From positions 1,515 to 65,514 of the forward strand of contig CAZDGN010000004.1 in assembly GCA_964505265.1 (NCBI GenBank): a stretch of DNA of 64,000 nucleotides, given 5' to 3'. The notes below the pieces were generated by a model that worked only from the letters and a program-made list of their open reading frames with translations, was not told where the DNA came from and did not search any database. This document shows, piece by piece, positions 2,776 to 45,700 of the stretch. Made by a program: the position numbers and the translations under genes. This DNA comes from an uncultured Rickettsia sp. (GTDB lineage Bacteria > Pseudomonadota > Alphaproteobacteria > Rickettsiales > UBA1997). Numbering within the stretch: position 1 is the stretch's first letter; every line of letters starts with the position of its first letter.

Positions 2776-2954
2776 CCGCTCCCCGCGTAAAGTCGGGGAG
2801 CTTAGAACCGCTTGCATTGCGAGTATTTTAAAATAGTTTTTTCATTAAAATTTAAAACCAAATAATTTGATGGAGTAAATTTTTAATTAAAAAACTCAAT
2901 CTTAAAAAAAATATAAATTTAAAATATCAAAATTTTTTTGATAAATAACAACTC

Positions 2955-3027
2955 CCCCTCCCAAAATTTTCCTGCGGAAAATTTTACCCTCCCGCAAGGG
3001 GAGGGTGATAGCACCTCTTGTTTTGCC
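2955..3027 (+). repeat. Nested palindromic GC-rich repeat element, copy E1
   Basis: The sequence is ccctcccaaaattttcctgcggaaaattttaccctcccgcaaggggagggtgatagcacctcttgttttgcc. It holds the inverted repeats aaaattttcc/ggaaaatttt and accctccc/gggagggt. It aligns almost base for base with the reverse complement of 34376-34450 and 34842-34915. Confidence 0.8.
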
Positions 3028-3107
3028 AGCTTTTCTTTAAAGGGTGATAGCACCTCTTGTTTTGCCAGCTTTTCTTTAAAGGGTGATAGCACCGCTTGTT
3101 TTGCCAG
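3003..3107. repeat. 39-bp tandem repeat, about 2.7 copies, built from the 3' module of element E1
   Basis: The unit gggtgatagcacctcttgttttgccagcttttctttaaa occupies 3003-3041 and 3042-3080, with a partial third copy at 3081-3107 carrying a t-to-g change (caccGcttg). Confidence 0.9.
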
Positions 3108-3444
3108 AGGAAAATTTTACCTTTTGAAGTTAAGGGAAGTTTGATTTTGCTTCTTGTGTTATGTCTTAATGAAAAAAATAATATAATATGTTTTTAATAG
3201 TAAGAAAAAAAATAAGCTCATACCCTATTTTTTTAAACAATCTATTTGACAATACAACTTATGAAGTATTTAATAATCAATAATAGTGCCCGCCAATGCT
3301 TCTTGGTAAAACTAGCACACCAAGGCGGGACAATCACCTACAAGATTTCCGATGACAAAATTTCTTAAGCCATCCCTAACAATAGAAAATCAACTAAATT
3401 TGGGTAAAAAAGAGGAATACACCCCCTCCTAAAATCTGTATTTC

Positions 3445-10764: not shown

Positions 10765-12117
10765 ATGTATTTATCGAATTATTTTATTCCATCTTTAAAG
10801 GAAAATCCAATTGATGCCACTGTGGTTTCTCACCAGCTTATGGTTCGAGCTGGTATGATTCGCCAGACTGCGAGCGGAATTTACTCTTGGCTTCCGCTTG
10901 GGCTTCGAGTTTTGCGAAAAGTAGAAAAAATTATCAAAGAAGAAATGGACAAAGCAGGAGCCCTTGAGGTTTTGATGCCCACAATCCAGCCAGCAGAATT
11001 ATGGGTTGAGTCGGGTCGCTATGATGCTTATGGTAAGGAAATGCTTCGCATTAAAGATCGCCATGATCGCGATATTTTATATGGACCTACCCATGAGGAG
11101 GTTATCACTGATTTGTTTCGCAAAAATATTAATTCTTACAAGGATTTGCCAAAAAATTTCTATCAAATTAATTGGAAATTTCGTGATGAAATCCGCCCAA
11201 GATTTGGTTTAATGCGTGGTCGTGAATTTTTGATGAAAGACTCGTATTCATTTGACATCAATGAAGAAAATGCCAAAAAAACTTACGACTTAATGTATCA
11301 AACTTATTTTAAAATTTTCATAAAAATGGGTTTGCAACCAATTGCTCTTCGAGCCGATACTGGAGCCATTGGCGGGGATTTGTCTCATGAGTTTCATATT
11401 CTCGCTGATGTTGGCGAGAGTGCAATTTATTACGACAAAAAACTTGATGAAATTTATCAACAAGAATTATTTCATTATCAGCAAAATTCGGGCGACAAAG
11501 ACGATATTATCGCTCTTTTAAAAGGTGGGCAGGAAATTGAAAATATCAATATTGACATCAAAAAATTGCAATCAATTTATGCGATGGCCGATGATTTACA
11601 TTCGCCAGAAAATTGTCCAGTTGCCAAAGAAAATATTATTGCCAAACGAGGCATTGAGGTGGGTCAGGTTTTCAATTTTGGATTGAAATATTCTAAGGCA
11701 ATGGAAGCTTCGGTGATGAGTGCCTCGGGCGAAAAAATCTATCCAAATATGGGTTCTTATGGCATTGGGGTTTCAAGAGTGGTGGCAGGTGCGATTGAAG
11801 CCAATCATGATGAAAGAGGCATTATTTGGCCCGCACAAATTGCCCCTTTTGATGTGATGGTTATTAACATCAAAACTGGCGATGAGCAATGCGATTTAGC
11901 ATGTGCAAAAATTTACGAAAATTTGCAAAAACACCATATCGAAGTTTTATATGACGATACCAAAAATTCGATGGGACAAAAATTGGCAGTTGCCGATTTG
12001 ATTGGCGTGCCATATCAAATTATCGTCGGACCAAAAACTTTGGCAAACAATCAAGTTGAAATTAAAAATCGCCGAACTGGAGAAAAATTTTTAGTAGATA
12101 TAAGCAAGGTTTTGTAA
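10765..12117 (+). CDS. proS: Prolyl-tRNA synthetase, short form without the insertion/editing domain
   Basis: It has the class II motifs FRDEIRPRFGLMRGREF and SYGIGVSR. The 450-aa length is as in alphaproteobacterial ProRS. Confidence 0.9.
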   Translation: MYLSNYFIPSLKENPIDATVVSHQLMVRAGMIRQTASGIYSWLPLGLRVLRKVEKIIKEEMDKAGALEVLMPTIQPAELWVESGRYDAYGKEMLRIKDRHDRDILYGPTHEEVITDLFRKNINSYKDLPKNFYQINWKFRDEIRPRFGLMRGREFLMKDSYSFDINEENAKKTYDLMYQTYFKIFIKMGLQPIALRADTGAIGGDLSHEFHILADVGESAIYYDKKLDEIYQQELFHYQQNSGDKDDIIALLKGGQEIENINIDIKKLQSIYAMADDLHSPENCPVAKENIIAKRGIEVGQVFNFGLKYSKAMEASVMSASGEKIYPNMGSYGIGVSRVVAGAIEANHDERGIIWPAQIAPFDVMVINIKTGDEQCDLACAKIYENLQKHHIEVLYDDTKNSMGQKLAVADLIGVPYQIIVGPKTLANNQVEIKNRRTGEKFLVDISKVL

Positions 12118-12473
12118 AAAATTAAATCAACTAAAATAAAAAACCAAAACAATAAATTTTTATTTTTTGGCTAAAAATCTCTAGAAAGCCTCGATTCTTC
12201 AAGATTAGATTTTCATATTTTAAATTTAATTAATAAATATTTATATTAATTTTTAAATCCTATTATTCCGAAAATAAAACAATAAAATAAAAACAAAATA
12301 AATTATAAAAAAATAATTTACAAACTATTTAACATAATAAAAATCATAAAAAATAAAATTCCCATTAAAATATTTTTATATGATTGCAAATAATACAGAA
12401 ACAAGTCTAAGTCCAAATCCAAATATATCCGAATCTGATAACCAGAATCCCACAACCTCTTCAAGAACCTCAA

Positions 12474-12851
12474 TTGCAGGTAAGATCTAATTTTGATATT
12501 TCTAAAGCAGTTCTTGCTGGACTTTTAACTGCGGTTGCAGTTGGTGGGCTTGGAATTCTTGCAGGTGAAGCAAAATGTAGCACTCAAAATGTTCCAAAAA
12601 ACGACACAGAAAGCAGTAGATCTCGTCATAATAAATGTGTTGATTCAAATTCTGATTCAATTATTATTGGAATGTTTGCAGGATTGATAGCTGGTTTTAT
12701 TTTTGAATTAATTAGAAGAAAATTAAGAAGACCGCCTTCGGAGCAACCAGTTGAAGAACAAGAAATTTCCCCGACAACACTAGGGCAACAAAGAAGATTG
12801 CCAAATACTTACTACTACTCAAATATCTTCAGGACAGCATCAAGGAGTTGA
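12474..12851 (+). CDS. Hypothetical small membrane protein, possibly frameshifted
   Basis: The TTG-initiated ORF has two hydrophobic segments (AVLAGLLTAVAVGGLGILAG, IIIGMFAGLIAGFIF). An ATG ORF at 12380-12490 in another frame overlaps its start. It ends in TGA. Confidence 0.3.
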   Translation: MQVRSNFDISKAVLAGLLTAVAVGGLGILAGEAKCSTQNVPKNDTESSRSRHNKCVDSNSDSIIIGMFAGLIAGFIFELIRRKLRRPPSEQPVEEQEISPTTLGQQRRLPNTYYYSNIFRTASRS

Positions 12852-12887
12852 AAGACAGTCTAGTCAAGAACTATAAATAATCAAGGT

Positions 12888-13736
12888 TTAAATATTGTCA
12901 AATAAACTCCTAAATCCTTTAGTGTTTAACCAAAAATTATTTTTGTTATTTTTTAAATAATTAATAATTTCATTTCTTTGGGTAGAAATTTTTTTCCCAG
13001 AAGAATTATCATCAAGTAATCTGTTGGAATATTTTCCATCAAGAAAGGATATTATGTAAAAATCTTTATTGCTTTCTTTTATGCTCAATAATTCAATTAA
13101 TTCTGACATTTGTTTATCTTGTCCACCACCAGAAGTGTTGATATGTTTGGCTTCGCAAATAAATAGTTTTTCATTTGATTTAATAATTAAATCCAGATTT
13201 TTATTTTGAGTTTTGGTTTGAATTTTAAGATTAAATTCTTCACGAACCATTTCCAAATTTATTTTACTTGAAAATTCTAAAAATCCAAATTTCGATTTAT
13301 TTAATTCATTTAAATTATTATATTTTTCATATCCATAATCATTAAGAATAAATGACAATTTCTTTTCTCCGGCTTTACCTTTTTTTCTTGATGAATTGTT
13401 GTCTATTAGAGCTTGTATCCAGTCTTTGGGGGTAAATTCATTCAAAACTCTATTTTGAAAAAACTTTTCGACAACAATTTTTAATGTATCAATATCCTCC
13501 TTAACACTTTCAATGGAATTGTCGCATGCATTAATAAAACAAGAAAATTCCGTAGAATTGGAATATTTATTAATATTATCAGAAAGTTTTAAATAATATT
13601 TTTGAATTAAATCACTATTTTCACTATTTTCACTAAGTGTTTTAATTGTTATTAAAATATTTTTGATTAAATTTGCATTTTCTATGTATTTATCCAGTTC
13701 AGAATTTATTCCAATAAAAGTATAAAATTCATCCAA
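12888..13736 (-). CDS. Putative type II restriction endonuclease
   Basis: A PD-(D/E)XK-like block, DLIIKSNEKLFICEAKHINTSGGGQDKQ, is present. The gene lies 29 nt downstream of, and co-oriented with, an N6-adenine methyltransferase gene. Confidence 0.55.
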   Translation of the reverse strand: MDEFYTFIGINSELDKYIENANLIKNILITIKTLSENSENSDLIQKYYLKLSDNINKYSNSTEFSCFINACDNSIESVKEDIDTLKIVVEKFFQNRVLNEFTPKDWIQALIDNNSSRKKGKAGEKKLSFILNDYGYEKYNNLNELNKSKFGFLEFSSKINLEMVREEFNLKIQTKTQNKNLDLIIKSNEKLFICEAKHINTSGGGQDKQMSELIELLSIKESNKDFYIISFLDGKYSNRLLDDNSSGKKISTQRNEIINYLKNNKNNFWLNTKGFRSLFDNI

Positions 13737-13765
13737 ATAGGGGTTCAGGATTATTTTTTGAAATA

Positions 13766-14953
13766 TTAAAATAATGAAGATTGTTTAAAATCATTTTCTT
13801 GATATATTAAATTTATCAGCTTATAAGCAGTATCAAACGATATTCTCTTCCGGTTATTGTCACGAAAATTTGTTAAAAAGAAAGAGAAATATTTGCTTCT
13901 ATTTTCATTTAATTGTTTGTTAAATATTTCAATTATTTTTGATTGTTCTTCAAGAGTGATTGGTTTCTTAAATATTAGATGAGCCATATTCCTCGAGGTG
14001 TTTTTCCCAACTAAAGCACTAACATTATATTCTCTAATATCTTCTAATTGAATTTTTTTTCCATTTTTACTATCAATTGCCCTTAAAAATAAAATATTTT
14101 TCTGTAGCATATTTATAAAGTTTTCGCTGGCATTGATTTGTTGTTTTTGATTTAAGTTTTGGATGGCAATGTCGATTTTTTTATTACCTTTTTCAATAAA
14201 GTCTTCTGTTAAGCGAAAGATTCCTAAAGAATTTTTTGTTTTCTTGATTTTTTTTATAAAATCACCTCCAAATTGCCAATTTAATTTTTTACTTAATTCA
14301 ATTTTTATATTTATGTTTTGTGGATAAATTGTGGCATCAAAAATGTTTATATCAGAAATTTTTGAATTTTTTTTAAAATAAAATGAAATCACGTTGTAAG
14401 TCGTGTCGTTAAATACCTTTTGTGTAAAAATGTTAAGTTTAACAATTGAAAATTTTGAAAAAAATAATTCACGAATTTTTCTAGAGTTTTCAGCGCATAA
14501 AAAGTTAAGAGGAATAACAATTATTCCCTCTTCGCAATCAAAGCAGGATTTTAAAGCAATTTGATAAAGATCTTCAAAAATTAAATTCTGTGTTTTGTAA
14601 AAAATATTTTTATACTCATTTGATATTTTGTTTTTATGAAGATAAGGCGGGTTGGTGCAAATAAACTTGTATTTCTTGGGAGATTCCAAGGAATCATTAA
14701 AAAATACATTATGATTATCAACATATTTTTCATCAAAATCAAAACCAACAGCACTCTTACAATTATGCTTTTTTGACCAGTTTAATAAATCTTGATTTCC
14801 AGCAAATGGATCGGTTACAACTTTATCTTTAACATAATTTTCAAATCCGTACAATATAAGATCAGAATTTGTTGTAAAAAATTGACCAAGATTTGTTTTT
14901 TTTGAATTTTCTTTTTTTTTATTTTTAAGATTTTTTGTAGGATTTATAGGCAT
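13766..14953 (-). CDS. N6-adenine DNA methyltransferase, gamma-class motif order
   Basis: The motifs GQFFTT, then DPFAGNQDL (SAM-binding FxGxG-like), then CTNPPYL (motif IV NPPY) occur in the order seen in TaqI/Eco57I-type adenine methylases. Confidence 0.75.
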   Translation of the reverse strand: MPINPTKNLKNKKKENSKKTNLGQFFTTNSDLILYGFENYVKDKVVTDPFAGNQDLLNWSKKHNCKSAVGFDFDEKYVDNHNVFFNDSLESPKKYKFICTNPPYLHKNKISNEYKNIFYKTQNLIFEDLYQIALKSCFDCEEGIIVIPLNFLCAENSRKIRELFFSKFSIVKLNIFTQKVFNDTTYNVISFYFKKNSKISDINIFDATIYPQNINIKIELSKKLNWQFGGDFIKKIKKTKNSLGIFRLTEDFIEKGNKKIDIAIQNLNQKQQINASENFINMLQKNILFLRAIDSKNGKKIQLEDIREYNVSALVGKNTSRNMAHLIFKKPITLEEQSKIIEIFNKQLNENRSKYFSFFLTNFRDNNRKRISFDTAYKLINLIYQENDFKQSSLF

Positions 14954-15058
14954 TAGGTGGATTTAATTTATTAAAATTTGTTATAATAATGCAAATATTG
15001 TAAAAAATTAATAAATAAATGCAAATAATTTTATAAATTTGCATTTATTTCGTAAATT

Positions 15059-20565: not shown

Positions 20566-21549
20566 CTACTTTTGAATAACTTCTTGATTTTGGCTTTTTA
20601 AATTTTTTAAAATATTTGGCATTAATGTTTTTAATTCTCGAAGATTATTTAAGGTTTCTGGTTTGGTTTTAGCTAATGTAGCAATGACTTCGGAAGCCTC
20701 TTTTAAAGTTTCATCATCGATTTTTTCTCGATTCTCTTTTGTCCAATTTTTAATAATTTTTTTAAAATCTTCAGCCTGATATTCACATAAAGACTTAGCA
20801 TTAATTACGGTGCTTCGATGCAGAATTGCTGGGCTAAGAGCCGATCTTCAAGAGTTGGTTGCGGAGTTAACGCTACTAATAATCATAAATCCAGCTTGGG
20901 GTTTGATTGTTGAATCTTGTGGATGCTGACCTGTTAATAAAGCGTTGATGGTTTTTTCGAGTCCGCCTTCTTTAATGTGGGTATTCATCTCGTCAAAAAC
21001 TACGATTACACCTAATTCAAAAGCCTTGATTAAATTCTTTTCAATTTCTTCAATCGGCAAGCTAGCGGGGATTTTATAGTAATAATGAGCCGGAGTTTCA
21101 GGTTGAATTTCTGATTTAATTTCCTTTTCAATATTCTTTTCAATTTCTTGTAGTGATTTTGTTTCGATGATTCCTCTTTCTTGCAAAACTGCATCGATCA
21201 TCATACTTTTACCAACTCCGGAATCGCCTTCAAAAATTACTCCGCAAGTTCCTAAAAATTGAGGCGGAATTTTACCCTCTTTTTGTAATTTTCTGATTTC
21301 AATCGCGGATTGCAAATCGGCAATATTTTGTTGATTGGCTTGGGTTGCAATAAAATTAGCATTTCGAACTTGACTAAATTCAATTGGCGATATTTTTTTA
21401 ACAATTTCTTTTAAAACTTTTTCTTGTAATTCTCTAACGGTTTCTGTGGGTAAATCTTCTTTGGTTTGAGGATCGCCTTGATTTTTTTCTTTATATTTTT
21501 TTATTTCTTCGATGGTAATTTTTTTGAAATCTTCCTCAGATAATTTTGC
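20566..21549 (-). pseudogene. Remnant of an AAA_5 (MoxR/dynein-related) ATPase gene, 5'-truncated and carrying an in-frame TGA
   Basis: A single frame is open from 21549 down to the TAG at 20566-20568, interrupted only by a TGA at 20848-20850. It has Walker A (GDSGVGKS), Walker B (VVFDEMN) and an arginine-finger-like SPAILHRS after the TGA. There is no start codon upstream of the TTG at 21315, and the frame opens right beside the IS remnant that begins at 21553. Confidence 0.7.
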
Positions 21550-21552
21550 TTA

Positions 21553-21767
21553 CCACTAAAACCAAAGAGAACTCATCGAGGGAATTGCAATTCAGATTTA
21601 TTATTACAATAACAATAGAATCCAATCTGCTAAAAAAATGCCACCAACGGTTTTTTAACAAAAATTTAGTCAATAAAATTTTAAAATAAATTAATTGATC
21701 ATTCAAGTTAAAAAAATTGAATGATTTCTGTTAATCAATTTAGAAGGAAGTTTTTGTCAAAAAAAAG
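21553..21767 (+). mobile_element. IS3-family element right-end remnant, copy 1
   Basis: It encodes only the last residues of a DDE transposase (..NQRELIEGIAIQIYYYNNNRIQSAKKMPPTVF*), matching the yYNnkR(i/p)h..L...tP tail of rve-domain transposases. About 100 bp of 3' sequence follows, with the hairpin atcattcaa-N10-ttgaatgat, ending ..tttttgtca. It is 214/215 identical to 26852-27066. Confidence 0.7.
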
Positions 21768-22431
21768 GGGGGGTGAGGTTTGAGCTGGTTATCTTTAATT
21801 TAGCAAAGTCAAAAATCGCCTTTTTTTATATAACCTCACTTGTTAAGAAAATGGATTGCTAAAATTTTGATTCGCAAATGCTGTTATTTCACTTATATCC
21901 GTCACAAAAAGGAATAAAATTACTACAAATTATAATTGACTTTTTTAAATCAAAAGTCAAAATTTAATTTTATTTAATATATTTTGAATTTATTAAAAAT
22001 TATGAATAAGGACTTTGTTCAAAGAATCCTCAATATTTTTGAAATATTAGGATATATTTTTGTATTGGGATATTTAGGAAAATATTGTAAAGGATGTCAT
22101 TACTATATGGAAGATATCTTATTATTTTTATTTTTTGTAGCCTTTCTTAGAATCTGTTCAAACTACCTTTTTCAATTCAAACTGTTTAATATATTTATAT
22201 TTTTTCTTATAAAAAAAATTTGTACAAAATTATGCTATGTTTTTAAATGTATTAATTCAAAATGGTATAATTAAAAATGGGTAAGTTTTATCTTATCTCT
22301 TATGCAAATTTTAACTTTACCTCGTCATCTATTGATAATTTAGTCTTGGCGATTTTTAAAAAACAAAAATCTTATGAGTATTGCAGGCTTTTGACATAAT
22401 CAGATTTGGATAAGGAGTTATTTTTTGTCAT

Positions 22432-24366
22432 CTATTTTAACTTAGATTGAGATACAATCTTTTTTATTTCTGCAAATAATCTATCGATAGCACCACCATT
22501 ATTTTTTTCGTCATTTTTTAATTCTTCAAGTCTGTAGCGATTATTAAAGTGATCTTGCCAAGACTCGCTGGTATTAGGAGGAACAAGAACCAACAAATAA
22601 CTATTATGATATTCATGGATTATGGCTTGTTTTTTATTTCTCAAATTCTGAGTTATTGTTTTAATATCTTCTTTATCTCTTAATATCACTCTATGGATTG
22701 TATCGAGACCTTTTTCATCAAAATCAAATAATCCTATTATTGTTTTTGTTTGTATGATTTTTTGAAAATAAGGAATTATAGATAAAGCCTTTATAGCATT
22801 AGGTACATTATCTGCACAACCGCATTCAATAAATTTGTAATTTGTTAAACCTAATTCTTCTGCTTTTGTTGAAAAATATTGTTCATCATCTTTTCCTTCA
22901 ACAAATATTATCACATCTCTCGATCCTTTAATGGCACCAATCGGTCCAAGTTCTTCATCATAAACAAATTTAGGCGCAAGTTTTTCTAAAATTTTCTTTT
23001 TACCATCTTCATTTTTAGCCCACTCAATTTTATGACAACCATCTTCATTTATAATTTCACACAAGCTTTTTGGATCAACCTCTGCAACAGTTGATGGAGA
23101 ATGAGTTGTTAAAATTACCTTAATATTTTTTTCAACAAACTCCTTATTTATGGTTTTTAAATAAAGCTCGGCTAGAGCAGGATTAAGGTTGGCATCAAAT
23201 TCATCTAATATAATTAAATTAACTGCATCTTTAGAATTATCATCTTTGCAAATTACAAAATAATAACAAATTAGTTCAAAAATCATTTTTTCACCACTTG
23301 ATAAATTTTGAAAAGATATGTATTCACTATGACAATCTTTATTATGAGAATAAAATGTTAGTTCATATTTTTTTCGAGTTGGTGGATTTAATAAATATCT
23401 AAATTTTTTATCTCCAAATTCAGTATTTAGATTGGTTATTTCTTCATTGATTTGCTCCCAATAAGATCGCCCCCCCCTTCTTTTTTCATTCTTTTGATCT
23501 TCAATCTTTCTAGAAATTTTATCGATAATAGCCTCCATCGATTGAAATGGATTAATTAATTTGTAGATATATTCATCAAACTCAAAAGGGTTCGTTATTT
23601 TTGATTTATCTCTGGCTTCTTTTCTTAATTTTTTTCTAATTTCTTGATCTATTTCCCTTAAGTTAATTCTATGATTATAATCTGAATAATTGCCTATATA
23701 TTTTGGCTCATAACCCTCTCTTTCGAATATTTTCAATCCATTTTCATATTCTAGAAAAATATTTTTAAATTCTTTTTTATTTTTATTTAACCTAGAAATT
23801 TTTTGAATTCGATTTTTTATCTCTGTTTTAACATCATCTTCACGAGTAATTCCTAAAGTTTTAGCAATTACATCTTTCTGCTCTCCAGTCATTTCAAAAA
23901 GTAAGTTTGTAACTTCATATAAAAAGTCAAAACCATATTCGTAAAGATCAGAATCTTTATTAAAAAGCATATTATTAACATCTAACAAATCGCTATAATA
24001 AATTTTCTTCCTTGAGCAAAAGTGAACAAATCTTCTATTAATTTCAACCCATATATCTTCAATTGTTAAACTTTCTTGCTCAGAAAATCTTTCCCTTGAG
24101 TTTCTAAATCTTATAAATCCATCGCTTCTTCTAATCTCATTGCGAGAATTTGGGTTTGTTGTCTTAAAGAAAACTGAACTAGGTTCTTTTTCTCTCTTTT
24201 CTCTATATAAATGGCTTAAAATAGTTGTTTTTCCACTTCCATTGAGACCGGTTACTACAACCAGCTTTCTATCTTCTGGATCAAAAATTAGTTCCTTCTT
24301 AAAAAAACCTTTATATTTCGCTGGTATTGTTGTTTTAATAATGTTTGCGGGTATTTTTGTTATCAT
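22432..24366 (-). CDS. Fused ABC-type ATPase plus C-terminal Toprim-like (OLD-family / DUF4435, PARIS AriA-AriB-like) protein
   Basis: It has Walker A (GLNGSGKTT), a long charged helical insert, an ABC signature (LSSGEKM), Walker B (LIILDEFDANLNP) and an H-loop (LTTHSP). The C-terminal region has IIFVEGKDDEQYF and a DxD motif (LFDFDEKG), typical of Toprim/DUF4435 nucleases. Confidence 0.7.
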   Translation of the reverse strand: MITKIPANIIKTTIPAKYKGFFKKELIFDPEDRKLVVVTGLNGSGKTTILSHLYREKREKEPSSVFFKTTNPNSRNEIRRSDGFIRFRNSRERFSEQESLTIEDIWVEINRRFVHFCSRKKIYYSDLLDVNNMLFNKDSDLYEYGFDFLYEVTNLLFEMTGEQKDVIAKTLGITREDDVKTEIKNRIQKISRLNKNKKEFKNIFLEYENGLKIFEREGYEPKYIGNYSDYNHRINLREIDQEIRKKLRKEARDKSKITNPFEFDEYIYKLINPFQSMEAIIDKISRKIEDQKNEKRRGGRSYWEQINEEITNLNTEFGDKKFRYLLNPPTRKKYELTFYSHNKDCHSEYISFQNLSSGEKMIFELICYYFVICKDDNSKDAVNLIILDEFDANLNPALAELYLKTINKEFVEKNIKVILTTHSPSTVAEVDPKSLCEIINEDGCHKIEWAKNEDGKKKILEKLAPKFVYDEELGPIGAIKGSRDVIIFVEGKDDEQYFSTKAEELGLTNYKFIECGCADNVPNAIKALSIIPYFQKIIQTKTIIGLFDFDEKGLDTIHRVILRDKEDIKTITQNLRNKKQAIIHEYHNSYLLVLVPPNTSESWQDHFNNRYRLEELKNDEKNNGGAIDRLFAEIKKIVSQSKLK

Positions 24367-24401
24367 ATTTTTTTTTCAATTCTTGATAAAATTAACTAAT
24401 T

Positions 24402-25151
24402 TTACTTACAAATTTCATATATAAAGTTAATAATTTTATAAATTTTTGAAGACGGATTGGGATTTCTGTTTTTATGTTTCAAATGATTTTCATCTAGGTC
24501 TTGACAGTTTTTAATCGCTTGATTAATTTTCTTTTTATCAATAAATTTTTCAAACCAATTTTCATTATTTTTTTCGTAAATAAAATTTTTATTTTTGGTT
24601 TTTAAAATTTTAGAAATTTCATCTTCTACTGATTTAGAATTTTTAAATTGCTTATCGGAAAATTTTTGAAAATGATTGAGAAGCCATATTTCGTATGATG
24701 GATTAGAATCAATTATTTCAATTTCATTTGAGTATTTTTGATTTAAATCTTGTAAATTTTTCGATGAAATTATTTCTTGGTATATTTTAGAATTGCCTTG
24801 ATTCTCTTGAGGCGAAACCGCATCAACAACACAAAATATTTTATCAAATTTAATTTTTGGACTATTTCTCTCTTCATCTTTTAATTTTTTTGCTAAATCA
24901 ACAATTCCTTGCAAAGATTGATTTTTCGGGCATATTAAGGTTATTTTAATTCGTTCAAATTTGTTAATTTTTATAAAACATCTTTGTTTTTTTGATTTTG
25001 GAAAATATTTTTCAGAATCGGATTTTTTTAAATCGGAATTGTTATTTTGAAATTTTAATTCTTTTAAAAAATATTCCATATAAAAAATGAAAGATTTTTC
25101 ATCTTCAGAAATTATTAAAATATTTTTGTCAATGAATTGATTCTTTGCCAT
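24402..25151 (-). CDS. RloB-like (Toprim-related) protein
   Basis: Three blocks line up with the RloB family pattern as I remember it: ILIISEDEKSFIFY (cEGekTEpnYF position), KIFCVVDA, and SNPSYEIWLLNHF plus NPNPSSKIYKII (SNPcFElWlLlHf...nPsT). The gene starts 6 nt after the upstream ATPase gene stop. Confidence 0.6.
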   Translation of the reverse strand: MAKNQFIDKNILIISEDEKSFIFYMEYFLKELKFQNNNSDLKKSDSEKYFPKSKKQRCFIKINKFERIKITLICPKNQSLQGIVDLAKKLKDEERNSPKIKFDKIFCVVDAVSPQENQGNSKIYQEIISSKNLQDLNQKYSNEIEIIDSNPSYEIWLLNHFQKFSDKQFKNSKSVEDEISKILKTKNKNFIYEKNNENWFEKFIDKKKINQAIKNCQDLDENHLKHKNRNPNPSSKIYKIINFIYEICK

Positions 25152-25157
25152 TAAACC

Positions 25158-26462
25158 CTACTTATTTTTGCTAATAAATGGGCGGGCACCGAATTCATGA
25201 TTGCGATATCGATCACAAATATTGTCATCATTGCGAATTCCGTTAAATTGATTGAGGCTATAAAGTTGACTTGATTGCTCTTTATCATCTTTGCTAATAA
25301 ACCAAATTTGATCGCGACGAAATAAATTAATTTTTTTATCAGTCTTTTTATCGTAAATTTTATCAAGCAAAATATCATTATGTGCCGTGAAAAGCACTTG
25401 ACCATTGCCTTCATTGATGTTTTTATCATGAAACATTTTAACAATTTCGAGCAAAATATCGGGATGAAAAGAGCGATCAATTTCATCGAAAAATAATACT
25501 CCACCATTGATGAGGGTTTTAAAAATTGATGCCGAAATTGAAAATAAATTCATGGTTCCAAACGACATTTTATTGGCTTTTAACCTTGTGCCATTTGGAT
25601 TGATAAAATTTATATTTGGTTTTTTTCGCATATTTTTTTTCATCTCCTCGCTAATATCAGAATCTTCTTCGATAAATTTTGGGAGTCGAACTTCTTTAAA
25701 TTCAACCTCAATATCCTTAACATTTAAATCAAATTTTTGCAAAAGTTTGACAACTTTATCTTTATTTTTTTTGTTTTTACTAATCCAGTGAATAGTTTCA
25801 AAATATCGATCTTCATGATCAAGAATAACTTCAGCATAATTTTGCATCCAATCATAAATTGGATTCAAGAATTTATTGCCATCTTCATTGATATTGAGTG
25901 ATAAAAATAAATTATTTTGAGTATTTTCAAATAGATTTATAGCCTTGTCTTTGTGCCCTTCAAAGCTATCTTTAAATTCATGATATAATTTATTTTTCTC
26001 AAAACCAATTTCATAAATTAATTTTGGCGAAACATCGACTCCATCTTTGTAAGAGGATAATTTTTCATAATGAATTTGCGAAGAATCATAGGCGAATTCA
26101 TATAAATATCTTGTTGAATTTGAGGCGATAAAATCAATTTCAAAAATCGTTGGTTTTTGAAATTTTTTATCTAGAACAAAAGGATCAAATTCTTCAATTG
26201 CATCACCTCTTTTCCTTTTTGTTGATAAAATCATTAAACCAAAACAATACCAAGATTTTACTAAATTAGATTTACCAGAAGCATTGGAACCATAAAGAGC
26301 AATTGATTTTAATAAATTTGGCACTTGTTTATTTTTGGTAGCAAAAATATTGCTTTTTAAATGAGATTGACTTTTGCCGTGATATTTTTCGCTAACAGAA
26401 AAATTAACAGTTTGTTTGCCTTTGATTGAACGAAAATTGCTAACCGAATATGAAATCAACAT
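25158..26462 (-). CDS. AAA_21/COG1106-type ABC ATPase (RloA/AbiLi-like)
   Basis: The N-terminus is VSNFRSIKG. It has Walker A (LYGSNASGKSN), Walker B (VLFFDEIDRSFHP) and an H-loop (LFTAHN). The C-terminal RRDQIWFISKD...LYSL...YRNHEFGARP is typical of this ATPase family. Confidence 0.7.
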   Translation of the reverse strand: MLISYSVSNFRSIKGKQTVNFSVSEKYHGKSQSHLKSNIFATKNKQVPNLLKSIALYGSNASGKSNLVKSWYCFGLMILSTKRKRGDAIEEFDPFVLDKKFQKPTIFEIDFIASNSTRYLYEFAYDSSQIHYEKLSSYKDGVDVSPKLIYEIGFEKNKLYHEFKDSFEGHKDKAINLFENTQNNLFLSLNINEDGNKFLNPIYDWMQNYAEVILDHEDRYFETIHWISKNKKNKDKVVKLLQKFDLNVKDIEVEFKEVRLPKFIEEDSDISEEMKKNMRKKPNINFINPNGTRLKANKMSFGTMNLFSISASIFKTLINGGVLFFDEIDRSFHPDILLEIVKMFHDKNINEGNGQVLFTAHNDILLDKIYDKKTDKKINLFRRDQIWFISKDDKEQSSQLYSLNQFNGIRNDDNICDRYRNHEFGARPFISKNK

Positions 26463-26689
26463 AAATTTAGAAAATATTCTTTGTAATTAATTTACAAAAA
26501 ATATAAAGTATTGTGATTATTATTGCAAGAATTTTGTTGATTTTGCAATTTTTTTACAAAAATAACAAAATTTTCTACAACACAAACTTCATTAAATCAT
26601 TATTGTTTGATAATAAATCGCCTAGATGTTTATTATCATTATAAGAATTGATATTAAAATACTTGTATAGAGAATTGAAGGGAATTTAT

Positions 26690-27066
26690 TTAATTAATGA
26701 ACTTTTCAATGCAAATCAAAGGGCAATGTCCTTAAAATTTATTTCAACTCCTCCTTTTCGATCAATCAAATTGAGAAGAAATTTTATATTCCAAAAGGAA
26801 TTCTATGAATTTTTTTTCAAAAGCTAAAATTTTAGCTTGAAGATTTTATTCCCACTAAAACCAAAGAGAACTCATCGAGGGAATTGCAATTCAGATTTAC
26901 TATTACAATAACAATAGAATCCAATCTGCTAAAAAAATGCCACCAACGGTTTTTTAACAAAAATTTAGTCAATAAAATTTTAAAATAAATTAATTGATCA
27001 TTCAAGTTAAAAAAATTGAATGATTTCTGTTAATCAATTTAGAAGGAAGTTTTTGTCAAAAAAAAG
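26690..27066 (+). mobile_element. Degraded IS3-family transposase 3' region plus right end, copy 2
   Basis: The stretch 26852-27066 repeats 21553-21767. Upstream sequence still shows broken transposase-like strings (KSKGNV.., EFFFKS*NF.. compared with KGNCxDNA / ENFFxxLKxE) interrupted by stops. The left boundary is approximate. Confidence 0.55.
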
Positions 27067-27418
27067 TACGGTTCACTTTTTTTATCACCATCAGCCTTAT
27101 ATTCAATCGAACATGCAAAAATTTCGCCGTCGGTTTTTTTTAAAATAAAAGCCACATCGAATCCTTCATCTTTTAGTTTGGCAATTTCAAATGCCATTTC
27201 AAGATTATTCCACAAACGATAACATGAATTATAATCTAAAAGAACTTTCCTTTTTTTTGGGGTTTGACTTGGAGAAGTTTGGGGCTTAAATCCGCACCAC
27301 CATTAATAGCATCTGAAGGAGAGAATGGAGCGCTTGGGGAGATTTGCTTAGTTGATTTTGAGGTTTCCTGAAATAAAAACCTAAAATCATTATTGTTAAA
27401 TAAAAGCGAAGAGTTCAT
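27067..27418 (-). pseudogene. Frameshifted gene fragment abutting the IS end
   Basis: An ATG at 27418 opens a 60-codon ORF. One extra A in the A8 run (T8 at 27251-27258 on the plus strand) would join it to the open frame ..LDYNSCYRLWNNLEMAFEIAKLKDEGFDVAFILKKTDGEIFACSIEYKADGDKKSEPY, which runs straight into the IS end at 27066. Confidence 0.35.
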
Positions 27419-27618
27419 AATTTATAAAAAAATTAAATTACAAATTTATAAAAAAATAGGCTACAACTTGTTTTTTAATTAATTTTTTAATATTTTCAAC
27501 TAGTTATTAATATTTAAAATAAATTTTAATATATTTGTTCGGATTTTTTTAAAGAAGTGGAGATTTAGAAAAATCATGTTAATTTTATAGTTAAGATTTA
27601 ACCAAAAAAATTAACATA

Positions 27619-29052
27619 ATGACCTTAAAAATTGAAAATCTTTACATAAAATTCAGAAAAACCGATGGCAATTTTCAAGAAATTATTCGGGATTTTTCTT
27701 TAAATTTATCATCACAAAAAATTACTGCATTAGTTGGCAAAAGTGGTTCTGGTAAGTCTCTAATCGCTCTTTCTATTTTAAAATTATTGCCAAAAAATGC
27801 TGAAATTTCTGGAAAAATTTATTTTGATAATCAGGATTTGTTAAAATTAAATGACAAAAATTTACAAAAAATTCGTGGCAAAGAAATTGGTTTTATTTTT
27901 CAAGATCCAAACACTGCATTAAATCCGCTTCACAAAATTGGCAAGCAAATTGGCGAGGCAATTTTGACACATCAGCCAAAAATTTCTAAAAATATATTAA
28001 AATTCAAAATTGAAAATTTAATGAAAGAAGTTGGTCTTAGTTCTTTGATTGATAGGGTCAATCACTATCCTCATCAATTATCGGGCGGGCAAAAACAGCG
28101 GGTAATGATTGCTATTGGGATTGCAAATAATCCACAAATATTGATTGCCGACGAGCCAACTACGGCACTAGATAAAAAAATCCAAGGCGAAATTTTGGAA
28201 TTATTAAAAAAACTTTCAATCGCTCGTAAAATGTCGATTTTATTGATTAGCCACAATAAAGCGGTAGTAGCAAATTTGGCGGATGAGGTGATAATGATTG
28301 GCGATAATTCGGAGCATTTGCATTTGCCAAATCGAATTGATTTTGTGAAAAAAAATACTGATGAAGAAATTTTGGTGGTGAAAAATTTGTCAGTTAAATA
28401 TAAAAATCATGAGGTGCTAAAAGATATCAATTTTACCTTAAAAACAGCCGAGAATATTGGTATTATAGGTGAAAGTGGCTCAGGAAAATCAACATTAGCT
28501 TTGGCTTTACTTAATTTAATACCAAGTGCGGGTGAAATAAATTTTGCTGATAAAAAAAATTGGCAAAAAAATGCAATTGAACTTCGAAAATCTATTCAGA
28601 TTTTATTTCAAGATCCGTTTTCAAGCTTGAATCCGCGGACAAAAATTTTCGACATAATCGCCGAAGGCTTAATTATCAATAGTTCGTTAAATTATTTGCA
28701 AAAAATATTTAATTTAACTTCGCCTAGCTTTAAAGAATATGTAAAAAATCAGGTTGAAGATATTGCCAAAAAATTGCAATTACCTCTTTTTTTGTTAGAA
28801 TTATTTCCGCATCAACTCTCGGGAGGGCAAAGGCAAAGAGTGGCTTTGGGGCGTTCGCTAATTTTGCAACCAAAAATTTTGATTCTTGACGAGCCGACCT
28901 CGGCACTGGATTATCAAACTCAAAATGAAATTTTAAATTTATTAAATAATATTCAAAAAAATCAGGAAATTTCTTATATTATCATTTCTCATGATGATGA
29001 GGTGATTAATAAAATGAGTGATAAGATTATAGAAATAAAAATAAGTAAATAA
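27619..29052 (+). CDS. ABC transporter ATP-binding protein with two fused ATPase domains (YejF/peptide-type)
   Basis: There are two Walker A sites (GKSGSGKS, GESGSGKS), two signature motifs (LSGGQKQR, LSGGQRQR) and two Walker B sites (LIADEPTTALD, LILDEPTSALD). Confidence 0.85.
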   Translation: MTLKIENLYIKFRKTDGNFQEIIRDFSLNLSSQKITALVGKSGSGKSLIALSILKLLPKNAEISGKIYFDNQDLLKLNDKNLQKIRGKEIGFIFQDPNTALNPLHKIGKQIGEAILTHQPKISKNILKFKIENLMKEVGLSSLIDRVNHYPHQLSGGQKQRVMIAIGIANNPQILIADEPTTALDKKIQGEILELLKKLSIARKMSILLISHNKAVVANLADEVIMIGDNSEHLHLPNRIDFVKKNTDEEILVVKNLSVKYKNHEVLKDINFTLKTAENIGIIGESGSGKSTLALALLNLIPSAGEINFADKKNWQKNAIELRKSIQILFQDPFSSLNPRTKIFDIIAEGLIINSSLNYLQKIFNLTSPSFKEYVKNQVEDIAKKLQLPLFLLELFPHQLSGGQRQRVALGRSLILQPKILILDEPTSALDYQTQNEILNLLNNIQKNQEISYIIISHDDEVINKMSDKIIEIKISK

Positions 29053-34229: not shown

Positions 34230-34297
34230 ATCTATAATTTTACCAGCATCCTTAGAAATCTCGCTTTTTGGTTGTGTCATAGTAAAATTCTCTTTGG

Positions 34298-34450
34298 CAA
34301 AATTAGCGGTGTCATCACCCCAGCTAGTTGCTCAATTGATAAAATTCCTAGGCTAAGAGAGGGTAAAATTCTTTTTGGCAAAATTAGCGGTGTCATCACC
34401 CTCCCCATCGCGGGAGGGTAAAATTTTCTGCAAAGAAAATTTTGGGAGGG
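34298..34450. repeat. 153-bp repeat block A1 containing palindromic element copy E2 (inverted relative to E1)
   Basis: Block 34298-34450 recurs at 34764-34915, differing by one indel (gcaaag vs gtaag) and a visible substitution (ggtgtc vs ggtgtt). It contains two copies of ggcaaaattagcggtgtcatcacc and the hairpin accctccc-catcgc-gggagggt. Confidence 0.85.
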
Positions 34451-34635: not shown

Positions 34636-34763
34636 TTAATTTTTAGTTAAAATTTAAAAAATTAATTTACTTTAAACTTTTTATAACTTTTTAAAAATTA
34701 ATTATTTTTTTAAAACTCGTTGCGATAACTTTACTTTGAAAATAAAATATATAATTTCATTGA

Positions 34764-34915
34764 CAAAATTAGCGGTGTCATCACCCCAGCTAGTTGCTCA
34801 ATTGATAAAATTCCTAGGCTAAGAGAGGGTAAAATTCTTTTTGGCAAAATTAGCGGTGTTATCACCCTCCCCATCGCGGGAGGGTAAAATTTTCTGTAAG
34901 AAAATTTTGGGAGGG
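34764..34915. repeat. Repeat block A2 containing palindromic element copy E3
   Basis: See 34298-34450. The block ends 18 nt from the proB stop codon. Confidence 0.85.
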
Positions 34916-34932
34916 GGGGGTTATAGTTTTTT

Positions 34933-42712: not shown

Positions 42713-45700
42713 ATGATAAAAATTTATAATTCAACCACATCGCCTAATGAGGATATAAATAAAAGAAAAATACCTATTTTAAAAAACTATTTATTTATTT
42801 TTTTTCTGATATCTATAAATCTTTTTCAATTTTCCAATAATGCTTTTGGTGTTAATGTTTCTGTTAACAATGATGTTAGAAATGTAACGGGTAGCGAGTG
42901 TTTAACTTCGGAATTTGACGAGGAGGAGTTTGATACTGATGAAATTGATGGAGAGATTCGAAGTAAACAATTGCCATCCCCTTGTTACGAGTCTAATTAT
43001 AATGAAAGCAAGCAAGTATGTGAGGTTGGGGGTTTTCCCGAGGCGATGCAGATTTATAATAATCCAGATTTGACTTGGAACTACGGAAATCAGGCTTGTT
43101 TAGGATATATAACTTCCACCGGAATTACATTGCAAGCAATTTTTATGGCTGCAAGATATTATTGTCCAATGCCAGGATTTTTTGCCCAAGGAAGTGCAGA
43201 TTTAGCTAATGATGTAAAGACCGCTGGTCAAGCGGGGGCTCAAGCTGCAACTCAGGTTAGTAAACAAGCGGCTAGAGAAGCATCTAATGTAAGCAAACTT
43301 GGAACAAATGGTTCAAAATCAATTGGAGAAAAATTAAGTGGTGCAGCAAAGACTCCTATTCAATCGGCAATGAACAAGGTGAAAAATTTGACGAAAAGAA
43401 CATCAGGAATTTCTTCTCCATGGCAAAGTGCTTCAATGGTTATTGATCCATTTATGATAGCTGAAATTGCTTACTTTGGGGGATCTTGCTATTATGCTCC
43501 ATCATGCTGTGCTGCATTTGGTACGACATCAAGTGCATATTTAACTGCGGTTGGGATTTTGGGTGGTATGTATTTAAATGCAAGAACTGCTTATTTAAAC
43601 ACTGAGGTTTGTGGAGAGGGTTATAGAACTTGGAGAAAGTCAACAGATCCTCTTGAGCCAAATAAATTAGGAATTTGGCAAAAGGAAAAGGGATTTTATG
43701 CAAAATGCCTAGAAAATTTTTTTGGAGATGCAAACTACGATTTGAGTTTTAGTAATATCGAATCGCCTCCCAAAGAGCATGTTGCTTATGATCGTTTGAT
43801 GAAATTTAAAAGCAATTCAGCAACATATAGCTTTAGTACAAGTCCAAGCGATTCAATATTTGATTGTAAAGTAACGGATAGTGGTACTGCAAGAAATACT
43901 CAAAAAACATTGACCAATATATATTATCGTGAGCACTTATTTAAAGGAATTGAGTATACTGACTCTGGTCCTGGTGAGTGTAAAAATCCTAGTTGGAATG
44001 AGAGTGAAAAGTTAAAGTATCTTGGATATAAAGATGAAAATCAAAAATATTATTTTCGCGGATCGGCCGAAGCCCCAAATTATGCATGTGATAGGTTTTT
44101 AATTAAAGGAATCAGTGATGAAGAGGGAATAAAAGCATTTGAATGTTGTAAAAAAAGAAGTATGGGAGCAATTTGTTTAGAAAGAAGAATAACTGGAAAT
44201 TATAAGTTTTGTTCAATGGATGATGGCGAGTGCAGTATAAATCTTGGAAACCTTCAGTATCCTCAAGCAGCTCCAACAAAATATGATATTTCAGAATCTG
44301 AAACTGATCCAAGATTTATTTGTGCTAAAACTTATAACCATTGTCCTTTTGATCATAATTTAGCAGGGGGTACCGATTATGCTCAACAATATCCAAAGCG
44401 TCCAAGTATCATAACTAATTTCTGTCAATATTTGCGAAATTGTGTTAAAAGAGTTCCTTATTCAAGAATTATTCCAAATGATCCAGATAGTTTTTTTATT
44501 GCTGGAGCTTGCAATAACTTGATGGGGGATTCGCAATTTTTTTATGATGAAATTAATTTACAATACTCACCAATTAGGTCTAGAAATTTTAGTGCCCCAA
44601 TTATTCAATGTGTTAAAGAATCAATTGAAAATAATTTTTTACAAATTACTGGCAAAACTAAATGTGCATCAACTGATTTTATTTATAATCCAATTAATAA
44701 AAATTGCGAGAATTTAGTAGATAGAAGCATTACTAATACCGACTTTTTATTTGTTAAGGGAGATGTAAGAGGTATAACTTTATTTCAAAAATTACAAAAT
44801 CAATTTAGAAATATTATAAGAATTGTTTTAGTTCTTTCGGTTGTTATGTTTGGATATAGCACATTATTTGCGGTTCCAGAGGCACATATCAATAAAAAAA
44901 CAATTATGGTTTTTTTAATTAAAATTGGTTTAGTTTCATTTTTTGCCCTAGGAAATGCTTGGCACGGATTGTTTATTAATCAAATATTAAATATTTCAAG
45001 CGAGATATCGAATATAACATTTTCCCCTGATGCCAAAAGTAAGGATGGATGTGAATTTCCAAAAAAGAATTATCAATATATCGATAAACTTCGTAACCTT
45101 GAGACAAATAATTTAACTTCTTATGCCAACTTACCACCCGAATATCCACCTGGTAAAAATTATTTAAGAATCTGGGATACATTAGATTGTAAGTTAGTCC
45201 GAGCAATAGGTTATGGACCCAATGTTGATACTGCAAATATTGCTAAAATGATTTTTGCAGGTTTTTTGACTGGAGGCGTAGGAATAGTTTTTTTCCTAGC
45301 TTCATTTGCATTGGCTTTTATGTTGCTATCAATTATATTTAGGGCTATACAAATTACTTTAATTTCGTTGCTTGCGGTAGTATTGTTGGTTTATATTTCT
45401 CCTATTACGATAACTTGTAGTTTGTTTGAAAGAACCAAGGGTATTTTTGAAAATTGGTATAAACAATTACTTGGATATATCCTGCAACCAATGATTTTAT
45501 TTGCTTATTTAGGTTTGTTTATTACGGTCATAGATTCGGTTTTTATTGGTAAAGCCAAATTTCAAACAATTACGGCTGGAAAATATTTTGAATTACCAGA
45601 ACCAAATTGCTCTGGAGTTGAGGATTCTAGTTTATTTTGCATTTTTAACTTTCCAAAATTTAAAAACTATACTGGTTTGGAATTTTTTGACTTGGCAATT

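Follow-up and report, generated by a model that had tools for sequence, protein, structure and literature searches.

Relics of an uncatalogued IS3-family insertion sequence bracket a predicted AbiL defence cargo within a split giant AAA+ gene of an uncultured Rickettsiales bacterium

We describe here a segment (21553-27075) of a 64,000-nucleotide stretch of DNA, hereafter the window, from an uncultured Rickettsia sp. (assembly GCA_964505265.1, contig CAZDGN010000004.1, positions 1,515 to 65,514), in which a 5.1-kb mosaic of intact genes with predicted roles in phage defence lies between two direct repeats of 215 bp. These repeats are the overlap of two unequal relics of the same insertion sequence (IS), a member of the IS3 family (IS150 group), lying in the same orientation, and the bracketed segment stands in place of the middle ~4 kb of a single AAA+ gene of ~1800 codons. 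On balance, we lean towards reading the locus as a decayed IS-bracketed insertion of the composite-transposon or translocatable-unit type; only a decayed derivative of a composite transposon can be claimed, and composite transposition itself is what we infer.

As the first-pass annotation had described, the left repeat (R1) and the right repeat (R2) align over 215 of 215 positions without a gap and with one mismatch (T at 21601, C at 26900), and by BLAST the match covers 218 bp at 99.1% identity. Their start-to-start spacing is 5299 bp, with 5084 bp in between, and no third copy is found in the 64-kb window. Identity by chance is excluded, since the next-best self-matches of the window are shorter than 50 bp and ~80% identical. 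In fact, because position 26900 is a T in another strain (L003), the lone difference between the repeats in the window is a young strain-specific single-nucleotide polymorphism (SNP). R2 of other strains has private SNPs at 26855 and 26871, and both repeats carry the same two nonsense codons. The repeat as an RNA gene or att site was ruled out, with no Rfam or tRNA match nearby and no integrase in the cargo.

The origin of the repeat was identified by an exhaustive phmmer search with its encoded peptide against a library of 1.8e9 proteins, in which 13 proteins matched at E<=1e-3, mostly with 66-74% identity over the whole peptide length. Here, the peptide is 74% identical (E 1.8e-5) to the C-terminus of a 297-aa transposase (P0141) with HTH_21, rve (1.4e-26), rve_3, and rve_2 domains, which in turn shares 31% identity (E 1e-29) with InsK of Escherichia coli IS150. 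Moreover, a frameshift-tolerant alignment of the coding part of the repeat with P0141 gave a score of 116, as against 25±4.3 in shuffles. Since this homology continues through the stop codon of the repeat, both the stop (TAT to TAA) and an upstream CAA to TAA change are nonsense mutations common to the two copies. A scan with P0141 recovered 79 loci of the IS family (L055-L133), and an all-versus-all comparison placed its elements at 1303-1363 bp, with orfA (starting MPKGIP..) upstream of orfB. The family has imperfect terminal inverted repeats, with the left one (IRL) reading GGCAAGGTCCCC.. and the right end ..AAAAAA[T/G]GGG(G)TACAGT[T/G]CA, so that the reverse complement of the right repeat (IRR) is TG[C/A]A[C/A]TG[T/C][C/A]CCC..; the right end is thus ..CA, and the left end GGCAAGG and not TG. 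Family members also conserve a hairpin past the transposase stop, with compensatory changes. From freshwater metagenomes and Rickettsiales-like genomes, the family matches no named IS with the tools used and forms a previously uncatalogued lineage of the IS3 family.

Other routes to this identification were less productive. Against Pfam alone, the repeat peptide gave only rve_2 at E 0.038 (32 aa), and frame-stitched peptides yielded no identification in Pfam, NCBIfam, a plasmid tblastn, or a word-indexed search of 5.8 billion proteins. A 38-nt repeat pattern failed to identify the IS in genome and metagenome collections, and a degenerate YYYNNNRIQ motif returned random low-complexity matches only. 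When taken as the reference, E. coli InsK aligns to only ~20 codons, and the view derived from it, that no transposase remnant lies upstream of the right copy, was overturned by the comparison with P0141. As separate observations, the IS family is abundant in freshwater-type metagenomes, where short derivatives recur and many matches are C-terminal relic open reading frames (ORFs) of 67-111 aa, and one of its proteins (P0137) fuses an orfA N-terminus (MPRGIPSL..DKG) to an orfB C-terminus (ELIEAIALQ..). A weak likeness to the left terminus of the IS (GCAAGATCCCCCAAAG.., nhmmer E 0.024) at 43436-43489 on the minus strand lies in apparently coding sequence and is probably due to chance.

With an nhmmer DNA profile built from seven full-length family copies (IS coordinates 1-1349), both relics were delimited, and the claim that each is the 3' end of a transposase gene is thereby upheld. 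In the left relic, the profile matches at 21553-21771 (E 1.4e-34). This copy is without IRL and ~1.08 kb of the left part of the IS, and shows no P0141-like signal upstream of R1, in keeping with the first-pass view that the two are right ends in the same orientation and that the left one is cut inside the transposase gene, here orfB. It does hold the IRR core, in which a run of A8 is followed by G7 (G10 in strain L002), as in the family pattern of A6-8 followed by G3-4, while the right relic has a single G at this place; runs of six or more G occur only six times in the 64 kb. This family-like run of G implies that the left relic stops only ~9 nt short of the IS end, as a copy with its own former terminus would. 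The segment of ~9 nt at its tip is hypervariable: strains with ~0.3% divergence elsewhere differ here at three positions within 10 nt. We also noticed that this G-run (21767-21774; G7 in the window, G10 in L002) and a C8 run at 23470-23477 are possibly phase-variable tracts.

The right relic is a mini-IS from which IS positions ~136-1031 are missing, so that ~1-135 run directly into 1032-1349. The profile matches its positions 1032-1346 at 26807-27072 (E 4.9e-41), and the 5' region of the IS is found at 26732-26807. Its left terminus at 26722 scored 45, as against 25.8±3.6, with 0 of 1320 genomic controls as high, and the orfA-start region scored 67, as against 23.5±3, while the right tip TACGGTTCA gave P=0.0006. 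For the 199 bp upstream of R2, the score against P0141 was 49, versus 27.3±3.7 in shuffles. The first-pass annotation had seen degraded transposase-like sequence upstream of this copy, and a remnant is indeed there, but as part of a mini-IS and not as a simple longer 3' piece; its placing of the element end at ..TTTTTGTCA was wrong, as family copies run ~18 nt further. The stretch 26463-26652 was ruled out as degraded transposase, being the upstream or promoter region of AbiL plus a fossil of hslU. At its outer end, the IRR tip of the mini-IS joins the giant AAA+ gene precisely, at codon ~114, and this is a genuine transposition junction. In the IS3 family, the target-site duplication is 3-4 bp long; the flanks of the mini-IS (..CAAAG and CTTTT..) are not direct repeats, as expected if they differ in origin. 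Within the orfB remnant, 18 bp (26821-26838, 14 bp to the left of R2) form a perfect palindrome, AAGCTAAAATTTTAGCTT, which arose by substitutions relative to the IS consensus.

The two flanks of the segment belong to the same gene. On the left, fragment A is interrupted by an in-frame TGA (20848-20850), and its 5' side is cut exactly at the repeat boundary, which by tblastn corresponds to residue ~86 of one homologue (P0002) and ~31 of another (P0009); its Pfam AAA match is weak. TGA as a sense codon of an alternative code was ruled out, the real genes having no in-frame TGA under table 11. On the right, fragment D is split into two small ORFs on the minus strand by a frameshift in a T8/A8 run at 27251-27258, and its frame enters the IS for 12 codons and stops at 27039-27041. 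These flanks had been noted as a truncated AAA gene and a frameshifted fragment, as they are. The N-termini of short AAA homologues gave no match to the right fragment, for which the full giant gene of a homologous locus (L048) was needed. Here, frame-stitched D is 31% identical over 118 aa (BLASTP, E 5e-6) to residues 13-121 of a 1418-aa ORF, and its homology ends at K113, which is the IS junction. In L048, this ORF is directly followed by a homologue of fragment A (a 377-aa ORF), and P0007 spans the join of the two ORFs. The flanks are therefore the ends of one gene, A being its 3' end and D its 5' end.

Comparison with sister genomes revealed that L007 (~93% nucleotide identity) and L008/L009 (94-97%) retain no more of the giant gene than its last 13 codons, with the 9-bp TTTAAAATA present at both borders of their deletion. 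The segment is accordingly not conserved and syntenic in relatives, which upholds the first-pass annotation on this point. The integration hotspot proposed there was not borne out, the locus being a decaying giant gene that the sister genomes have deleted outright. In a more distant contig, an AAA homologue again stands beside the orthologous YejF-like ABC ATPase. In L047 (JGI 3300042883), a distant relative, as compared with window positions 27619-29052, the giant-gene homologue and the YejF-like double ABC ATPase are arranged tail-to-tail, not head-to-head. This suggests an old linkage of the two genes with an inversion.

The cargo comprises three genes, all on the minus strand and intact in two strains, whose defence-like nature, already proposed in the first-pass annotation, is borne out by their family matches. 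Two of these, abiLi and abiLii, lie on the same strand 6 nt apart, as an adjacent pair of the kind that defines a predicted AbiL system, and the pair is conserved in at least five other loci. The third encodes an OLD-like protein with a clear ATPase part (Pfam AAA_21, 6.7e-14), while for its C-terminus the only coverage comes from a weak DUF3226 match and from the PADLOC model ATPase-Toprim_I-B (1.7e-18, residues 249-598). An NCBIfam match to PtuA (2.6e-11) is far under the cut-off, and the PDB match to the retron Ec78 ATPase is weak. Within this gene, strain differences cluster at 23477-23480, next to the C8 homopolymer, and between strains it has nine nonsynonymous and three synonymous differences, with the AbiL pair almost invariant. 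The stretch 21775-21926 is hypervariable between two strains, taking 10 of the 29 cargo mismatches (~6%, versus ~0.3% in the rest of the cargo). Family scans with Pfam and PADLOC found no integrase or replication gene in the cargo, and a promoter and terminator scan gave signals not above shuffles.

The AbiL pair was captured from a conserved chromosomal position downstream of hslU. In three other loci (L034, L035, and L036), a counterpart of 24421-26635 is 86-88.5% identical in nucleotides, and those loci are without the OLD-like gene and without the repeat. The fossil of hslU scored 91, as against 20.2±2.4 in shuffles. The native order kdsB-rimB-rimK-engB-hslU-abiLi-abiLii is found in four loci (L035, L049, L052, and L053), which represent three AbiLi lineages with 80-87% aa identity to the AbiLi of the window. 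This fossil, together with the conserved order, indicates that the module was lifted from that locus. No signal extends the hslU fossil or the IS into the 69 nt (26653-26721) that separate them.

Table 1. Features of the IS-bracketed locus and its surroundings, in window coordinates
Feature	Coordinates	Strand	Basis or remark
Region absent from two sister Rickettsiales metagenome-assembled genomes, 6.9 kb	20612..27512		genome comparison
Fragment A, last ~328 codons of giant AAA+ (AAA_5/MoxR-like) gene	20566..21552	-	homologues P0001-P0015
Left IS relic, IS ~1078-1342 of 1349	21553..21774	+	nhmmer, tip test, strain comparison
R1, part common with R2	21553..21767	+	self-alignment
orfB 3' end of left relic			nonsense TAA at 21556-58 and 21656-58
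Hairpin of left relic	21698-21706 / 21717-21725		
Segment 'B', small ORFs 21984-22274 (+) and 22277-22399 (+)	21775..22431		no family matches
OLD-like ABC/AAA_21 ATPase + Toprim-like, 644 aa (predicted)	22432..24366	-	Pfam, PADLOC
abiLii (RloB-like, Toprim/OLD-type partner), 249 aa (predicted)	24402..25151	-	Pfam RloB 4.9e-19; PADLOC AbiLii 6e-8
abiLi (AAA_21 ABC-type ATPase), 434 aa (predicted)	25158..26462	-	PADLOC AbiLi 3.2e-71; Pfam AAA_21 6.5e-25
Captured chromosomal module: abiLi-abiLii, upstream region, hslU fossil	24421..26652	-	nucleotide identity, fossil test
hslU fossil, last 24 codons (stop included, 26575-26652)	26581-26652	-	score versus shuffles
69 nt, neither hslU-like nor IS-like	26653..26721		
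Right IS relic, 354-bp internally deleted mini-IS, both termini	26722..27075	+	nhmmer, IRL and tip tests
IRL and orfA start region of mini-IS	26722-26807		IS ~1-135, hairpin region missing
orfB 3' remnant of mini-IS, from IS position 1032	26807/8-26984		
R2, embedded in mini-IS	26852..27066	+	self-alignment
Hairpin of mini-IS	26997-27005 / 27016-27024		
IRR of mini-IS, tip TACGGTTCA	ends 27075		
Fragment D, first ~114 codons of giant gene	27076..27418	-	BLASTP versus L048

In the scenario that we favour, two IS copies that were already non-functional, as their common nonsense codons suggest, would have come to flank abiLi-abiLii, the 24 hslU codons, and the OLD-like gene. Entry into the giant gene may then have occurred by transposition of the whole composite with transposase supplied in trans or, alternatively, by integration of a circle (one IS plus cargo) where a copy of this IS already resided. 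One later deletion would have taken both the left ~1.08 kb of the left IS and ~4 kb of the target gene, and a separate internal deletion would have reduced the right IS to 354 bp; with 215 bp of homology surviving, the 5299-bp unit could still be looped out or amplified by RecA-dependent recombination. The right outer junction is precise, and the left one is gone together with the ~4 kb of the target gene. An inserted greater-than-unit-length fragment with arbitrary ends is disfavoured by the precise junction of IRR and target. As it stands, the locus does not consist of two IS copies each with both ends, the left one being without IRL and tip and the right one internally deleted. Several points weigh against this scenario. 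The ~9-nt tip after the G-run of the left relic is not recognisable (P 0.58-0.95 against family tips; 0.04 against the tip of the right relic), and the junction of left relic and cargo may thus be illegitimate and not an IS terminus. A target-site duplication cannot be checked, as the left outer end is deleted and the flanks of the mini-IS (..AAAG and CTTT..) are mismatched. Neither the window nor 42 kb of sister-genome loci yielded an intact copy of the IS, and no protein more than 75% identical turned up anywhere; the order of events is not uniquely reconstructable; and in the short-read graphs of other samples (k=31), an integrated segment would look the same as a free circle beside an empty site.

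The unrecognisable left tip is also the starting point of the main rival explanation, possible in our view but doubtful, in which a single IS (the right one) transposed and the 215-222 bp on the left are a non-transpositional copy. Here, the join of IS ~1340 to the cargo start (GGGGGGTGAGG) would be a head-to-tail junction of a 5299-bp unit of cargo plus IS, formed by tandem duplication or by a re-integrated circular or concatemeric form, with a later deletion of ~9 kb trimming the left unit and the giant gene. Such an origin agrees with a spacing of exactly one unit, with patchy microhomology at the left border (the repeat search extends to 223 nt), and with copies that were 215/215 identical in the common ancestor of the strains and have two nonsense codons in common, as expected of duplicated dead sequence. 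However, it requires two large illegitimate events, as well as an illegitimate breakpoint that happens to lie no more than ~9 nt from the IS end (a chance of about 0.2-0.7%). Moreover, the run of G7-10 in the left relic is family-like, whereas the right relic has a single G, so that the left relic is not a simple copy cut after A8G.

The shared inactivating mutations may also be accounted for by gene conversion, in which two independent and diverged IS insertions were homogenised over 215 bp and the near-identity would say nothing of a recent duplication. That identity stops abruptly at both borders, with the last 10-16 nt differing strongly between the copies, speaks for such a process, yet the left border is merely the truncation point of the left relic and no diverged donor-type signature is demonstrable in 13 nt. 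Moreover, the private SNPs in R2 of other strains mean that homogenisation has not been continuous, and we regard this explanation as unlikely. Even less credence is due to an assembly artefact, in which the chromosome would read A-R-D and the 5.3-kb unit of cargo and repeat would be a separate circle or lie elsewhere. In two independent short-read assemblies, L001 (SRR8942238) and L002 (SRR9924787), both cargo/repeat junctions are present at 100% and 99.3% identity, respectively, and the unitigs end 24-30 nt into the repeats on both sides, which is what a k of 31, shorter than the repeat, would produce. As the 215-bp repeat exceeds the unitig k-mers, these graphs fit both resolutions. In the assembly of the window, however, the locus is resolved by flanks and a SNP that are specific to each copy, all four types of junction are again present in at least three samples and in strains 0.6% apart, and the cargo has no replication gene, which together make an artefact barely credible. 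The R1-cargo-R2 structure is, in fact, stable across the sampled strains.

A further and decidedly speculative idea, which we rate as improbable, is that the dead-IS repeats have been co-opted as a transposase-free recombination switch, through which a population would alter the dosage or presence of AbiL and the OLD-like gene as the 5299-bp unit is looped out and re-integrated by RecA, or amplified in tandem, with the A8-G7/G10 and C8 tracts possibly adding phase variation. If true, an intracellular Rickettsiales lineage with few ISs would thereby be able to turn costly abortive-infection genes on and off.

Elsewhere in the window, the stretch 12117-15055 (GC 24%) is missing from L007, a sister genome, and differs in L009. 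It encodes a weak match to a Tsp45I-type restriction enzyme (12888-13784, E 1e-6) and a 397-aa protein without a family, and is probably another strain-variable defence islet. Dispersed repeats of ~160-180 bp were also seen, at 34283-34450 and 34750-34916 and, inverted, at 2846-3028, with identities of 94-96% and ~82%; these contain 30-nt sub-repeats and end in G8 or CCCTCCC, and the sister genomes differ there. Three tandem units of 39 nt lie at 3002-3118.

Taken as a whole, the first-pass annotation is upheld in its essentials, and the locus is a well-resolved but ordinary example of a known way in which defence genes move, and involves no new mechanism. Its value is that of a dissected example of defence-gene traffic in an uncultured and probably host-associated Rickettsiales lineage, in which an AbiL pair and a piece of its neighbour were joined with an OLD-like gene, bracketed by IS copies, and, on our reading, placed in a giant AAA+ gene that sister species deleted. 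It also records, from freshwater metagenomes, a lineage of the IS3 family that had not been catalogued, together with its mini-IS derivatives, and illustrates how IS decay immobilises a cargo yet leaves a 215-bp substrate for recombination.

Among known systems, the IS150 group of the IS3 family, made up of copy-out-paste-in DDE elements of 1.2-1.5 kb, shares with the element described here the HTH_21, rve, and rve_3/rve_2 domains seen in P0141, a size of 1.30-1.36 kb, the orfA-orfB arrangement, inverted repeats, and the ..CA end. By contrast, the window has only dead relics (the mini-IS of 354 bp and a 3' fragment of 222 bp that carries nonsense codons), and the left end of this family is GGCAAGG rather than TG. 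The mini-IS resembles miniature inverted-repeat transposable element (MITE)-like IS derivatives in keeping both terminal repeats, P0137 being another deletion derivative in the family, but it was seen as a single copy with no sign of multiplication. For the locus as a whole, a close parallel is Tn6330 (ISApl1-mcr-1-ISApl1), for which a 'birth and demise' has been described, with a segment captured between direct ISs and then immobilised by IS deletions (PMC5821093). Both have a chromosomal segment between direct IS copies that was moved and then immobilised by deletion of flanking IS parts, though the IS is of the IS30 family there and of the IS3 family here, the trait is antibiotic resistance there and predicted phage defence here, and no intact ancestor or target-site duplication is found at this locus. 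In the translocatable units of IS26 and the IS2-like 'megacircle' of Burkholderia thailandensis, a circle of IS and adjacent DNA inserts beside a resident IS (PMC6350997; PMC7986276). The megacircle is alike in its cargo between direct IS repeats, and is a precedent from the IS3 family; the present locus differs in having neither evidence of a circle nor an active transposase, and excision at present would be RecA-dependent across 215 bp. As regards the cargo, AbiL, PARIS, and other defence systems of an ABC ATPase with a Toprim or OLD partner have been reviewed for their biology of phage protection (PMC13064643). The likeness to AbiL lies in an AAA_21 ATPase and a RloB/Toprim-like partner that fit PADLOC AbiLi and AbiLii, plus a single-chain OLD-like gene, all with a predicted function here, and the difference from AbiL and PARIS is that the host here is an uncultured Rickettsiales bacterium. 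Finally, the OLD-like protein best fits the effector model of retron I-B, with no reverse transcriptase or msr/msd nearby.

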